A program made the translations under genes and the position numbers. A model generated the notes under the pieces. It ran no database searches and had not been told where the DNA came from. It worked only from the letters and a program-made list of their open reading frames with translations. From Escherichia phage vB_EcoM_Lutter, in sequence record NC_054924.1: a DNA stretch of 64,000 nt; one strand, given 5' to 3'. Shown here one piece after another: positions 15,661 through 21,765 of this stretch. The number at the start of each line of letters is the position of its first letter. Position 1 is the stretch's first letter.

Positions 15661-17000
<1,340 letters not shown>

Positions 17001-17099: not shown

Positions 17100-17300
17100 A
17101 TGGTACAAAAATTAATGGCACTTGTTAATGCCATAAAAGGTAATAAAAAACGTATAGCTTTTACTATTTCTGCTATGGTAGGAATTTTACTCTGGAACTT
17201 TATTTTATCACCAATTGCAATTGCGCATGGTGTTAATATTCCAGTAGTTACTCTTGATACATTCGTAGATCTAGCATTTGCTTTAGTTGGGTTAATTTAA
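17100..17300 (+). CDS. small hydrophobic membrane protein candidate (66 aa), plus strand
   Basis: Only plus-strand ORF in an otherwise ORF-free 300-bp interval; AAAGGAGG SD 4 nt before ATG; two predicted TM helices; late-promoter-like GATAAATA upstream. Confidence 0.3.
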   Translation: MVQKLMALVNAIKGNKKRIAFTISAMVGILLWNFILSPIAIAHGVNIPVVTLDTFVDLAFALVGLI

Positions 17301-18325
17301 ATCTTGGCATATTTAGATAGCCGCATTTTAGCCATCAACCCCTGGGCAATATTATTTTTCATATATTCCATAATTTGTTCAGGGGTTGCACCTTCCTTTC
17401 TAATCATATCATTAACATCTTTTGATTTCCAGGGAGATTTATCCCAAAACATAACCCTTTCTCCTGCATCAACTAATTTAGTCATTCGTTTAATAGTGTC
17501 AGGGTGACGAGGTTCATTATCTAAAACCCACACTCGTCTATCTTTAAATGGAACAACTTCTAGGTCTAATTGACCACCCGTAATAGCTATACCATTTTCA
17601 ATAAAAAGTGAATCTATAGGTCCTTCTAGAACATATACATCACCATCTTTAACTCGTTCGACTCCATAGATTTTTGTTGCTTCAGGATAAGCTTTGATGG
17701 TGATATATTTTTGAGGAGCATCTTTCTTTAATGCACGTCCTTGAAACGACTCAGCTTTTCCATTAGCATTATAAATTGGAATAACAAGACGAGGCTCAGA
17801 AATTTCCTTTTTATATGTTCCCGGTGCTATGCTATTAACCAATTTAGGCCATTCGGTTGTAAACCAAAGATATTTCCATTTATCCTTTGGAATACAACGA
17901 GCTTTTACATATTTTATAATTGGATGGTCTTCCGCCAGTTTATCTAATCTAACACATGACGGAAGAGATTTAATTATTTTCTTCTCAGGTTGTTTAGGAA
18001 GTTCTTTAGGTTTTTCTACTGGACGACTTTTACCTTTTTCTTTTCTTATTTCAAAAATATACTCACGATATAAATCGGGTTCAAACTCCTTTAAATATAT
18101 TCCGATTGGTGCATGATAGTTACAGTTATAACAATGAATATTTCCTTCATTATTATCGCCATAATACCATCCACGGGCTTTATTTTGGTCGGTTTTTGAA
18201 TCTCCACAAACAGGGCATCTAAACCGCAATTTAAAAGTTGAACTATTATTTACTTGTGTGAATTTAGGTAAATGAGCTAATGCACGGTATGCAAACTCAT
18301 TATCAATCCAAGGTATTGATGACAT
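17297..18325 (-). CDS. 61: DNA primase
   Basis: 342-aa ORF with zinc-ribbon (CPVCGD...CYNC) and TOPRIM-like region; T4 gp61 length. Confidence 0.9.
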   Translation of the reverse strand: MSSIPWIDNEFAYRALAHLPKFTQVNNSSTFKLRFRCPVCGDSKTDQNKARGWYYGDNNEGNIHCYNCNYHAPIGIYLKEFEPDLYREYIFEIRKEKGKSRPVEKPKELPKQPEKKIIKSLPSCVRLDKLAEDHPIIKYVKARCIPKDKWKYLWFTTEWPKLVNSIAPGTYKKEISEPRLVIPIYNANGKAESFQGRALKKDAPQKYITIKAYPEATKIYGVERVKDGDVYVLEGPIDSLFIENGIAITGGQLDLEVVPFKDRRVWVLDNEPRHPDTIKRMTKLVDAGERVMFWDKSPWKSKDVNDMIRKEGATPEQIMEYMKNNIAQGLMAKMRLSKYAKI

Positions 18326-18327
18326 TT

Positions 18328-18492
18328 TTACTCTTCTTTTTCTTTAGATTCCTCTTTCTTCTTTTTAGGAATCTGTTCAGGACCTTTATTTACTACAGCA
18401 CCTGACGTTGTTCCAGTAGAGATATTTTCAGGATTACCACCTGAATCTCCAGCGACCATATCTTCTTTAATAAATTCTTTATATGTTTTCAT
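18328..18492 (-). CDS. hypothetical small protein (61.1 position, 54 aa)
   Basis: ORF below cutoff (MKTYKEFIKEDMVAGDSGG...), fills the gap upstream of 61. Confidence 0.45.
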   Translation of the reverse strand: MKTYKEFIKEDMVAGDSGGNPENISTGTTSGAVVNKGPEQIPKKKKEESKEKEE

Positions 18493-18493
18493 A

Positions 18494-18850
18494 TTAACCT
18501 CTATTCATAAAAGCATTAAAAATTTGGTCATCAATAGATGGTGCAGTAATATTTTCTGCATCATTTAGCAAATCATTAATTTCATCAGATAGCATAACAC
18601 ATGTACCTTTATTTCCTGTAATTGTTACTGCACAATTACGAACGTTTTCTTTATCAAATTTTAGGTTAATATTTTCGTAGTGAAAATCCTTTAATGCCGA
18701 ATATATCTTTAAAATGAAATTGTCTTTTACTACAATAAACCCAACCTCACTATTAAAACGCGGTTCATGGAAACTGTAATAAACCTTTTCATCTATAAAA
18801 TCGTATGAAATTTTTTCCATTTTTAAATATGAAAATTCAGAACTATACAT
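18494..18850 (-). CDS. single-domain paralog of the 61.2-position protein
   Basis: 118-aa ORF; last 14 codons plus the stop/start junction nearly identical at DNA level to the end of the 18852..19484 gene. Confidence 0.55.
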   Translation of the reverse strand: MYSSEFSYLKMEKISYDFIDEKVYYSFHEPRFNSEVGFIVVKDNFILKIYSALKDFHYENINLKFDKENVRNCAVTITGNKGTCVMLSDEINDLLNDAENITAPSIDDQIFNAFMNRG

Positions 18851-18851
18851 A

Positions 18852-19484
18852 TTAACCTTTATTCATAAAAGCATTAAAAATTTGATCGTCAATAGAAACT
18901 TTTACTTTAGGCTGTTCTTCAAACGGTAATTCATATCCACATATTACAATTTTGTGATCGATACCAAAATACACAGAAGCAATATTATTAATATTATTTT
19001 CAGTGAAATCTAAATCAACATCAATATCTTTTTGACTAACGCTCAAAGGATAATTAATACGAATAATTCGATTATCTTTAACAAAGATTCCACCGACATA
19101 CTCTGTGCTGCGTTTAAAGTTTACACGTTTCCTAAATGAAAAATATTCAGGTTCTTTATGGGCTCGACTCATAGGGCTTAAAGTGTATTCCGAATATGAA
19201 ATATCAAATCCTACACCTTCAATATGAGCCAAAGTATCATGATTAAACCAATTATAATCGTATGCCAAATCCATTAAATTGTAATATGTGAAAGGCACCG
19301 GATTAACATCATATGTTGTACCTTTAAAATCTGCCCAGGCAACGATTTCGTTATCTTTAACAATTACAAAAATTGTGCCAATAAGATATCTACGGTTATT
19401 TTCATCAGGTGTTATATTATAACATTGTGCATCAGGAAATTTACCGTATTTAAACGGTGGATTTTTGTGCATATAATAAATCAT
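18852..19484 (-). CDS. two-domain protein (61.2 position)
   Basis: 210-aa ORF with two internal repeats of a VKDN-containing domain. Confidence 0.55.
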   Translation of the reverse strand: MIYYMHKNPPFKYGKFPDAQCYNITPDENNRRYLIGTIFVIVKDNEIVAWADFKGTTYDVNPVPFTYYNLMDLAYDYNWFNHDTLAHIEGVGFDISYSEYTLSPMSRAHKEPEYFSFRKRVNFKRSTEYVGGIFVKDNRIIRINYPLSVSQKDIDVDLDFTENNINNIASVYFGIDHKIVICGYELPFEEQPKVKVSIDDQIFNAFMNKG

Positions 19485-19485
19485 A

Positions 19486-19779
19486 TTATTCGCCTGTGAT
19501 TTCGGTTACGATATTTTTGTTATTAAAGTTTTTATCGCAATACAGAACATAATTATACTGCATTACACCACCAGACTTAAGTTGTTTTTGCACTTCAGCT
19601 TTCATTTCAGGACGATCACGCTCAACGATATTCATAATATCTGCTTCAATTTGAGTTTCAACCTCAGTCTGATCTGCAGTCATAGACCATTCACACAAAT
19701 CTTTATCATAACCTGCCATAGCAGGCTGAGCAGCACAAGAAGCTAAAGCAAAAATTGTAGCAAAAATAAATTTTTTCAT
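19486..19779 (-). CDS. sp: spackle periplasmic protein (superinfection exclusion)
   Basis: 97-aa ORF with cleavable signal peptide; matches T4 Sp size and location. Confidence 0.75.
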   Translation of the reverse strand: MKKFIFATIFALASCAAQPAMAGYDKDLCEWSMTADQTEVETQIEADIMNIVERDRPEMKAEVQKQLKSGGVMQYNYVLYCDKNFNNKNIVTEITGE

Positions 19780-19837
19780 GATAATCTCCTCAGTAGTTTA
19801 TGTTTATAGTATCTCAATTTCCAACAAAAGTAAACAG

Positions 19838-20095
19838 CTATTTTAAAACTTCTGCATAATCACATGTTACAAACTGTTTCTCTAGCTTAACGATCTTACG
19901 AAAATACCTTTTACACTGACGAATCTGCCGCTTCGTAGGGCGAACAGCAAACTTAATAAATTCCACTCGACCAAATGGAGGACTTTCTTCTGCTGGAATA
20001 TCTAACACCAATTCCCACGTATCGGCAATAAGTGCTTTGAATTGCGTATTTTTCCTGACGTTATACGGAGTAGGTTTAAATAAAACAATATGCAT
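19838..20095 (-). CDS. hypothetical protein (61.4 position; possible TifA-type anti-toxin factor)
   Basis: 85 aa from internal ATG 20095 with GAGG SD; basic protein adjacent to dmd. Confidence 0.45.
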   Translation of the reverse strand: MHIVLFKPTPYNVRKNTQFKALIADTWELVLDIPAEESPPFGRVEFIKFAVRPTKRQIRQCKRYFRKIVKLEKQFVTCDYAEVLK

Positions 20096-20096
20096 A

Positions 20097-20279
20097 TTAT
20101 CCTCGGCAATCCACTTCACATACTTTCTTGTCATCAATGAAAGCTTTAACTAATGCTTTATTAACTTCAGCATACTGAGTAGTAGCCCATTGAACGTCAT
20201 CTTTCATCATTGTGATTTCTTTAGTAAACATGCTTTCATTCTTAAACCACCCCATAAAAACTACCTTTACCAATTCCAT
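20097..20279 (-). CDS. dmd: Dmd-like antitoxin (inhibitor of RnlA/LsoA toxins)
   Basis: 60-aa ORF between 61.4 and 41; size and position match T4 dmd. Confidence 0.65.
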   Translation of the reverse strand: MELVKVVFMGWFKNESMFTKEITMMKDDVQWATTQYAEVNKALVKAFIDDKKVCEVDCRG

Positions 20280-20308
20280 AACAATCTCCTCATTTAACCA
20301 ACAAGACT

Positions 20309-20339
20309 ACTATACCATAGTCTTGTCAGCTTGTAAACT
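20309..20339 (-). promoter_or_regulatory. T4-type early promoter with -10 inside a 9-bp inverted repeat
   Basis: GTTTAC, 17 nt, GTATAG; ACAAGACTA/TAGTCTTGT inverted repeat brackets the -10. Confidence 0.5.
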
Positions 20340-21765
20340 AAAATTTTAATTCATTCGCCAAAGCATCTAACTGAGCTCGAGTCGATTCGTTTCTTTGATA
20401 GCGATTCTGTTCAGCCTGAATCTGTTGTGAACCTGCTACTTCGTTCACTTCAGTTGGAGTAGAATCTTGTTCAATTTCTACCCATTTCTGATTTCCTTTT
20501 TGAACACCCATCAAAAACTTATTCCATTTATTCTTATCACCATATCGTGATTTGATTTGCTTAATGAGTTGTTGTTCAGCAGCTGCTAACTCCTCGGTTT
20601 CAATGACCGCAAGCATAAAATCAGCTGTCGCTGGAAGACCAGCAGATTCTGCGATATCACTCATGTTAACATCGGAAGAGTCCCAAGCTTGTTTACCAAC
20701 CTGTGCTGCAGTCCAAAGAACAGTTTCAGTTTCAACAGCCAGAGCACGCAATTCTTCTGCGATGGCTTTAACAGCTGTGTAACTATTTTCTGAATAAACT
20801 CTGATGCGGCAAGATTTACAAATACCTAGATAGTCGACAATAATGATTGTTGGAACAAAATTTTTCTTGAGCTTCAATTCATTCAAGAGAGACCTGAATG
20901 TGTTAGCATCTGCCCCACCAGTAGGATACTGTTTAACGATTAAACGACCGAGAGTAGATTTCTCACGCCATTTTTCCATTTTTCCTTTATACTCAGCGTA
21001 AGAAATATGCCCATCATCAATGTCATCAAGAGAAACATCAAGCATATTAGCATCAATACGCTTAGCACAGACTTCTTCTGCCATTTCCATGGAGATGTAA
21101 AGAACATTATGTCCGAGCTGCAAATAATCTGCTGCCAATGAACACAATCCTAATGACTTACCAACGTTAACGCCAGCCATTAAAACGTTCAGTGTTCCAG
21201 TCTCAGCTCCGCCTTTAGTAATTTTGTTCAGAATTCTGAGTTTAAATGGAACCTTACGAGCTTTATTCATATAAGATAGCCAACGTGCTTCGTAGTCATC
21301 CATCCAATCATGACCAACGTAACTATCAAATGAAATTGATAATGCTTGGCGCATGATGTCAGGAATAGCACCAACATCCGGCATTTTCTTATTTCGTTTT
21401 TCCGGAGGAAGTTCAGCATTAGTTTGAATTTCGATTATTTTAGACGTAGCATTAAACATCGCCCTTTGCTGAACATATTTTTCTGTTTCTTTTATTAACC
21501 AACTGTGGTCTTCCGGAGAATCAGCCAGTTTTGAAATAAGTGTTTTTACACCAGAATATTCTGTTTCAGTAAATGAACTATTTTCTAATGCAACATTTAA
21601 CGCATTAATAGATGGAACGCTATGATACTCATTGACATGAGATTTAATTAATTTGAATGTATTTTTAGCTGGACCACTTTCAAAATATTCTGAATCCATA
21701 TATGGCCAAACTTTTGAAAAATAAGCTTGATCAAATATGAGATGAGAAAGAATAATTTCTACCAC
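20338..21765 (-). CDS. 41: replicative DNA helicase (DnaB-like)
   Basis: 475-aa ORF with Walker A GVNVGKS; T4 gp41 length. Confidence 0.9.
   Translation of the reverse strand: MVEIILSHLIFDQAYFSKVWPYMDSEYFESGPAKNTFKLIKSHVNEYHSVPSINALNVALENSSFTETEYSGVKTLISKLADSPEDHSWLIKETEKYVQQRAMFNATSKIIEIQTNAELPPEKRNKKMPDVGAIPDIMRQALSISFDSYVGHDWMDDYEARWLSYMNKARKVPFKLRILNKITKGGAETGTLNVLMAGVNVGKSLGLCSLAADYLQLGHNVLYISMEMAEEVCAKRIDANMLDVSLDDIDDGHISYAEYKGKMEKWREKSTLGRLIVKQYPTGGADANTFRSLLNELKLKKNFVPTIIIVDYLGICKSCRIRVYSENSYTAVKAIAEELRALAVETETVLWTAAQVGKQAWDSSDVNMSDIAESAGLPATADFMLAVIETEELAAAEQQLIKQIKSRYGDKNKWNKFLMGVQKGNQKWVEIEQDSTPTEVNEVAGSQQIQAEQNRYQRNESTRAQLDALANELKF

Follow-up and report, generated by a model that had tools for sequence, protein, structure and literature searches.

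A T4-type anti-toxin gene cluster with a single-domain AdfA relative between the primase and helicase genes of Escherichia phage vB_EcoM_Lutter

The gap between primase gene 61 (17297-18325) and helicase gene 41 (20338-21765) of Escherichia phage vB_EcoM_Lutter (NC_054924.1) is filled with small genes, and it raises the question of whether these genes form an island of counter-defence factors, and of what an additional gene of 118 amino acids (aa), absent from the corresponding locus of phage T4, contributes to it. We analyzed a 64-kb window, i.e., the whole stretch of 64,000 nucleotides (nt) given to us, which comes from the left portion of a T4-like (Tequatrovirus) genome. A preliminary description of this DNA had reported a run of six small genes at 18328-20279 and had based their functional assignments on synteny and size. 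Six tightly packed minus-strand genes are present there, and the homology searches against Dmd, TifA and AdfA upheld each synteny-based assignment by sequence. The best explanation of the full region, and one that we hold to be highly probable, is that it represents an island directed against toxin-antitoxin (TA) systems, the T4-type "anti-TA island" of Tequatrovirus, with gain and loss of a 118-aa cassette mediated by repeats.

All six open reading frames (ORFs) are real genes and not chance ORFs. Pfam matches were obtained for five of the six proteins (E = 1e-7 to 2.5e-139) and PHROG matches for all of them (E = 7e-34 to 4e-133); NCBIfam returned zero matches for any of the six. Purifying selection was detected across all six genes, with ratios of nonsynonymous to synonymous substitution rates (dN/dS) of 0-0.32 against homologues. 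The 2.2-kb stretch at 18200-20400 matches 663 phage records, with 99.0% identity to phage JK1 and 98-99% identity to more than 100 deposited Tequatrovirus genomes, and near-identical records are already annotated with gp61.1, gp61.2, spackle, gp61.4 and Dmd. Coupling between the genes is tight, since four of the five internal boundaries read TAATATG (stop codon, one base, start codon). For 61.4, the ORF listing shows a 99-aa form that begins at TTG; the ATG at 20095 was preferred because a GAGG Shine-Dalgarno sequence lies 7 nt upstream and because it gives the 85 aa annotated in T4.

The first gene of the run, which the preliminary description had called Dmd-like, encodes a protein with 100% identity to T4 Dmd over 60 aa. 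It is covered by Pfam PF17587, the family of Dmd, a mimic of the antitoxins RnlB and LsoB, from residue 1 to 60 of 60 (E = 1.6e-46), and it matches PDB entry 5HY3_B, 'Antitoxin Dmd' (E = 1.8e-37). Dmd acts on RnlA (PMC5308261, PMC8266594), and binding and inhibition of the RnlA and LsoA toxins would be expected here from the identity with the characterised protein (PMC9391042, PMC5308261). The adjacent gene, joined to dmd by a TAATATG junction, encodes a protein that differs from T4 gp61.4 by the single change I83V (98.8% identity over 85 aa) and matches DUF7279 (PF23945; E = 1.8e-20), with no TifA match in the PDB sequence search. T4 gp61.4 was renamed TifA and inhibits the ToxN endoribonuclease by binding the toxin together with RNA (PMC9391042). 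The substitutions F41S or F41H increase TifA-ToxN binding (PMC9391042, PMC10853763). Residue 41 is Phe in our protein, as in T4, and not the Ser or His associated with strong ToxN inhibition at native copy number.

The 210-aa product of the 61.2 gene was predicted to be a two-domain protein of the AdfA type. Its namesake, the anti-DarT factor A (AdfA) of RB69 and T4, was reportedly described by LeRoux in 2022. Pfam PF23813 covers positions 1-210 of 211 (E = 2.5e-139), a full-length two-domain match, and the protein aligns end to end with the AdfA of T4 (73% identity) and of RB69 (83% identity). The AlphaFold model (pLDDT 67.6) consists of two sheet-plus-helix units and a terminal helix, and the PDB sequence search revealed no AdfA match. 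An hVKDNxI hairpin motif common to both halves and a repeated secondary-structure pattern suggest an internal duplication, which was not established by hhalign, as N-half and C-half aligned over only 12 columns (E = 0.003, probability 11%). Relative to T4, dN reaches 0.48 over the first 70 codons, whereas the genes flanking adfA are 95-100% identical to their T4 counterparts. Because AdfA is nearer to the RB69 (Mosigvirus) form while its neighbors are T4-like, adfA can be regarded as a mosaic cassette, and this mosaicism points to the exchange of a single cassette between genera.

Residue 164 of RB69 AdfA is a switch: with Arg the protein does not bind DarT1, while His, found in escape mutants and in T4, results in binding and neutralisation (PMC11825919). 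The equivalent position in our AdfA is Asn167, so that the full-length family assignment stands, while the His expected of a DarT1-neutralising form is replaced. The codons CGT (RB69 R164), CAT (T4 H165) and AAT (Asn167) are joined by single-base steps. Among 16 AdfA protein clusters, Asn is confined to the cluster of the window itself, and the exact 37-aa context of Asn167 was found in 47 of 485 AdfA-bearing phage records. The AdfA of an ENA metagenome scaffold (ERZ28619829 scaffold_181) also has the Asn form.

Downstream of adfA lies the 118-aa gene, which had been described as an extra paralog. Its product scores 31.9 bits against the Pfam AdfA model (gathering cut-off 27), aligned with profile positions 113-211 only, and lacks the canonical two-domain AdfA architecture, the N-terminal domain being missing. 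BLASTP gave 37% identity to AdfA residues 111-210 (E = 4e-10), comparison of the 118-aa family with the C-terminal half of AdfA by hhalign gave a probability of 98.5% (E = 2e-15), and the protein belongs to PHROG 4122 (E = 2e-72). Judged by these comparisons, the gene is a true paralogue of the AdfA C-terminal domain. Its AlphaFold model (pLDDT 81) is compact: a five-stranded sheet comes first, two helices separated by a strand follow, and the C-terminal helix is poorly packed. The family is tiny: a search of 1.84 billion representative proteins gave 10 matches, and every one of them comes from a T4-like phage. In T2, the 118-aa gene, situated between sp and 61.1, is the sole member of the AdfA family, and its product ("gp61.2", HY01_0032, PHROG 4122) is 97.5% identical to our protein. 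Intact ORFs of 118-125 aa with 30-46% identity are also found after sp, at this same position, in a Gaprivervirus and in metagenomic phages of 173 kb. These intact orthologues in other genera, together with a dN/dS of 0.11 against T2 and of 0.32 against a 75%-identical metagenomic homologue, argue for a working gene. At the helix position aligned with AdfA 164, the single-domain family has Asn here, His in the 75%-identical homologue and Asp in other genera.

Paralogues in Gaprivervirus EAWsc9 (L004, 2062-2499) carry unrelated names: a 145-aa paralogue sharing the tail described below is annotated 'serine/threonine protein kinase', and a 122-aa one 'DUF2528 domain-containing protein'. The Pfam scan of our 118-aa protein gave neither a kinase nor a DUF2528 match. 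The 145-aa protein has only the AdfA-family tail in common with the 118-aa protein, and a relative from phage VR25 also matches the fold. Based on these sequence comparisons, both labels look like annotation errors.

The cassette is bounded by a 49-nt direct repeat, the two copies of which are 94% identical and spaced by 358 nt, exactly one 118-aa gene unit. One copy spans the 3' end of adfA and the other that of the 118-aa gene, and both run on into the start codon of the gene that follows. T4 has this sequence once, and it is exactly there that the alignment with T4 is broken. In comparison to T2, our sequence has a clean insertion of 623 bp, namely adfA, which separates the stop codon of sp from the start of the 118-aa gene, and the T2 spacer at this insertion point resembles the final bases of the tail. 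Across the phage collection, with approximate counts derived from protein counts and the junction of the window type, 485 records contain full-length adfA, ~297 the 118-aa gene and 156 the junction of adfA with the 118-aa gene; ~330 records have adfA only, ~140 the 118-aa gene only and 156 have both. Junction-specific megablast counts (T2-type, 213 records; T4-type, 233 records) were discarded, as they were inflated by the joining of pieces less than ~625 nt apart. The locus varies among T4, T2, RB69, a Gaprivervirus and metagenomic relatives, with imm, imm.1, an HNH endonuclease and extra small ORFs found in the gap of the latter three; the remark in the preliminary description that such loci are hot spots is justified by this variation.

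In the metagenome scaffold mentioned above (L007, 2040-2460), dmd is broken by a stretch of N, and one sequence of ~55 nt occurs on either side of it; this is most likely an artefact of scaffolding and no true duplication of dmd. TifA is shortened to 73 aa at that locus, and an extra 84-aa ORF lies between tifA and sp.

Every paralogue, including the 145-aa Gaprivervirus protein, which has just the fold in common with the others apart from this, ends in DDQIFNAFM plus three residues (N/K, R/K and G/D). The codons of this tail differ synonymously across genera while the peptide is invariant, which argues for selection at the protein level beyond an embedded Shine-Dalgarno sequence or a repeat. 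In the models, the tail forms a low-confidence terminal helix after a flexible linker, as would be expected for a docking peptide. The 64-kb window holds no further copies of the motif. A sliding-clamp-binding peptide was considered for the tail and dropped, as the motif fits neither the PIP-box nor the QL[SD]LF consensus.

The two remaining genes are conserved with T4 as well. The periplasmic spackle protein of the preliminary description was confirmed by a full-length match to Pfam PF25676 (E = 3.5e-45), a match to PDB 6X6O (E = 2e-60) and 95% identity to T4 Sp. A signal peptide of 22 aa is consistent with the crystal construct of the mature protein, 7CN6, which aligns to residues 23-97 and thus begins at residue 23. 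T4 Spackle (gp61.3; PDB 6X6O, 6XC0 and 7CN6) likewise has a signal peptide, and it differs from ours by five substitutions, three of which are in the last six residues. Spackle inhibits the gp5 lysozyme of superinfecting phage (PMC7677548). The 61.1 product is 96% identical to T4 gp61.1 and belongs to PHROG 1823, function unknown (E = 7e-34), with zero Pfam or NCBIfam matches.

Based on these similarities, the cluster would operate as a set of early genes that are coupled in translation and lie between the helicase (41) and primase (61) genes, with an early promoter upstream of dmd probably driving dmd and tifA. Dmd would bind and block the RnlA and LsoA RNase toxins, while TifA would bind ToxN with RNA, so trapping it in a ribonucleoprotein complex that is inactive; its F41 form presumably works only when over-expressed. 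Spackle would reach the periplasm by export, where it would inhibit gp5, the lysozyme of superinfecting T-even phages. AdfA is predicted to be a toxin-binding member of the anti-DarT family, with a target range that may be set partly by the residue equivalent to RB69 164, Asn here. The 118-aa protein would be a stand-alone AdfA C-terminal domain with the same DDQIFNAFM tail, and we infer that it most likely acts as another toxin-binding inhibitor, with a specificity of its own. The 118-aa cassette would be gained or lost through homologous recombination between the 49-nt repeats that encode the tail, which could give rise to the three arrangements, i.e., adfA only (T4), the 118-aa gene only (T2) and both (here). 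The coordinates of all features are listed in Table 1.

Table 1. Features of the primase-helicase gap, with positions in the 64-kb window
Feature	Position	Strand	Evidence
Early promoter of T4 type upstream of dmd (TTTACA, 17 nt, TG-TATAGT)	20309..20337	-	10/12 matches, extended -10 TG
dmd (61.5), 60 aa	20097..20279	-	100% identity to T4 Dmd, PF17587, PDB 5HY3_B
tifA (61.4), 85 aa, pI 9.8	19838..20095	-	98.8% identity to T4 gp61.4, DUF7279
tifA-sp intergenic spacer, 58 bp, with weak promoter-like site	19780..19837	-	9/12 consensus match
sp (61.3), 97 aa, periplasmic Spackle	19486..19779	-	95% identity to T4 Sp, PF25676, PDB 6X6O
adfA (61.2), 210 aa, two beta-sheet/helix units and C-terminal helix	18852..19484	-	PF23813, AlphaFold model
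AdfA Asn167 codon, AAT	18984..18986	-	alignment with RB69 R164 (CGT) and T4 H165 (CAT)
49-nt direct repeat, copy 1: adfA 3' end (tail DDQIFNAFMNKG, stop) and ATG of the 118-aa gene	18848..18896		
118-aa gene, single-domain paralogue of the AdfA C-terminal domain	18494..18850	-	Pfam AdfA, PHROG 4122, hhalign
49-nt direct repeat, copy 2: 3' end of the 118-aa gene and ATG of 61.1	18490..18538		
61.1, 54 aa, acidic/low-complexity	18328..18492	-	96% identity to T4 gp61.1, PHROG 1823

The top promoter-like site of our scan, running from 20337 to 20309, is the one upstream of dmd. The published early promoter that serves dmd and tifA in T4 (PMC9391042) likewise precedes dmd, and the site detected here lies in the same place. 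A promoter downstream of tifA has also been mentioned for T4 (PMC9391042); by analogy, the weak site in the tifA-sp spacer (19806..19778) may serve as a promoter here. No terminator-like site was found in 17200-20500, and no Rfam match at the gathering threshold was obtained in the whole window.

Several observations weigh against reading the entire cluster as a counter-defence island. TifA is by its sequence the weak T4-type F41 form: wild-type T4 overcomes ToxIN only after amplification of dmd-tifA, single-copy F41 TifA being too weak (PMC9391042, PMC10853763). Spackle is, judging from its homology, a superinfection-exclusion factor acting phage-versus-phage and no host counter-defence protein. 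As neither Spackle nor gp61.1 is known as a counter-defence factor, the term used in the preliminary description fits the Dmd, TifA and AdfA families and hence only part of the cluster. T4 resists DarTG1 without adfA, a task fulfilled by AdfN (gp30.3), and deletion of adfA has no phenotype on DarTG1 even in the absence of adfN (PMC11825919). DarT is accordingly a putative target for most AdfA forms, the Asn form among them. Family membership is solid for the genes assigned here, and their activity against the particular toxins is predicted. The structure models of AdfA and of the 118-aa protein revealed no informative structural neighbor outside the family. Finally, the gene functions given here are predicted from sequence, and toxin binding by the 118-aa protein is putative.

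It could be argued on these grounds that the clustering is meaningless and that unrelated non-essential early genes have gathered in a primase-helicase gap that tolerates insertions. Such a view would accommodate Spackle and gp61.1, which stand outside the anti-toxin theme, as well as imm and imm.1 in the same gap of RB69 and the HNH homing endonuclease in that of a 173-kb metagenomic relative. However, anti-toxin activity has been demonstrated by experiment within the families of three to four of the six genes, an enrichment that is real, and the locus has already been read as an anti-TA island by the authors of PMC9391042; we regard a chance assembly as unlikely. Narrower doubts concern the 118-aa gene, which might be a decaying, functionless remnant of a partial tandem adfA duplication, kept inside a transcribed and translationally coupled block. 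The restriction of its AdfA match to the C-terminal half, the flanking 49-nt repeats typical of unequal recombination and the fact that T4 does without the gene would all fit a remnant; its low dN/dS in both comparisons, the intact orthologues at the same position in other genera, its role as sole family member in T2-type phages (~140 records) and the confident compact model of its product would not, and we find such decay very improbable.

A different role for the 118-aa protein would be that of a partner or modulator of AdfA, or of a competitor for a docking site through the shared tail, tuning AdfA without a toxin of its own. The two proteins have the tail and the domain fold in common, and their genes are adjacent and translationally coupled in ~156 records. 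Against this stand ~140 records, including T2, and in addition the distant 173-kb phages, in which the single-domain form occurs without two-domain AdfA; the 118-aa protein must therefore be able to work alone, and we give little credence to a purely modulatory function. The anti-TA island with a repeat-mediated cassette remains our preferred explanation, and it can be extended, tentatively. The 118-aa protein and its relatives of 118-125 aa in further Tevenvirinae genera may be the ancestral stand-alone form of modular toxin-binding inhibitors that combine a variable specificity domain with an invariant flexible docking helix (DDQIFNAFM). In AdfA, the helix position equivalent to 164 toggles between R, H and N, and its counterpart in the single-domain forms between N, H and D. 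Further DarT variants or other toxins would then be neutralised by the 118-aa protein and by AdfA with Asn, and the 49-nt repeat would serve in addition as a linker for recombination through which cassettes are shuffled between co-infecting phages. We consider this extension possible, though we lean against it rather than towards it.

Two neighboring loci in the window deserve mention. A 66-aa plus-strand ORF (17100-17300), the sole plus-strand gene in the stretch, converges on primase gene 61 and overlaps its 3' end by 4 nt; it belongs to PHROG 2024 (function unknown, E = 1.5e-31), and its counterparts in other records are annotated as predicted membrane protein or 'holin family'. A 186-aa minus-strand ORF (16440-17000) has a stop codon that overlaps the start of dam (15661-16440, minus strand; PF02086, E = 6.5e-51). 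It shows weak sub-threshold Pfam matches to the DpnII (GATC) restriction endonuclease (E = 0.0045) and to BanI, is a member of PHROG 8706 (function unknown) and had no match in the PDB sequence search. The corresponding gap of T4, ~310 bp long, contains no annotated gene, while T2 has a 181-aa ORF of homologue size. From these weak matches, the 186-aa ORF may encode a nuclease that targets GATC and forms a pair with the Dam of the phage.

The "anti-TA island" concept has already been published for T4 (PMC9391042), and our sequence is ~99% identical to deposited genomes; the finding is therefore a known and ordinary one. The minor new points, which are not surprising to a specialist, are the Asn form of AdfA, the identity of the 118-aa protein, that of T2 included, as a single-domain member of the AdfA family, the putative repeat-mediated gain and loss of its cassette, and the conserved tail. 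They provide two candidate reagents for the DarT/AdfA arms race, namely AdfA with its naturally occurring Asn (47 of 485 records) and a single-domain paralogue (~300 records), and they highlight the conserved C-terminal peptide as a candidate docking tail. T2 has been described as naturally lacking an adfA homologue (PMC11825919), a claim that needs qualifying, as T2 holds the 118-aa AdfA-family gene.

Among known systems, the locus is closest in layout to the T4 dmd-tifA-sp-adfA-61.1 island (Srikant, Guegler & Laub 2022, eLife, PMC9391042), with which it shares position, gene order, strand and the early promoter upstream of dmd. Dmd (100%), TifA (98.8%), Sp (95%) and gp61.1 (96%) are nearly or fully identical between the two, in contrast to AdfA, which is 73% identical to that of T4, nearer to that of RB69 (83%) and has Asn in place of His, and to the extra 118-aa gene between adfA and 61.1. 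The AdfA proteins of RB69 and T4 share PF23813, length and the invariant C-terminal tail with ours, but they have Arg or His at 164, and the Asn form lies outside the set of forms assayed in the literature (PMC11825919). In T2, the 118-aa gene replaces adfA, whereas in vB_EcoM_Lutter it stands beside it.

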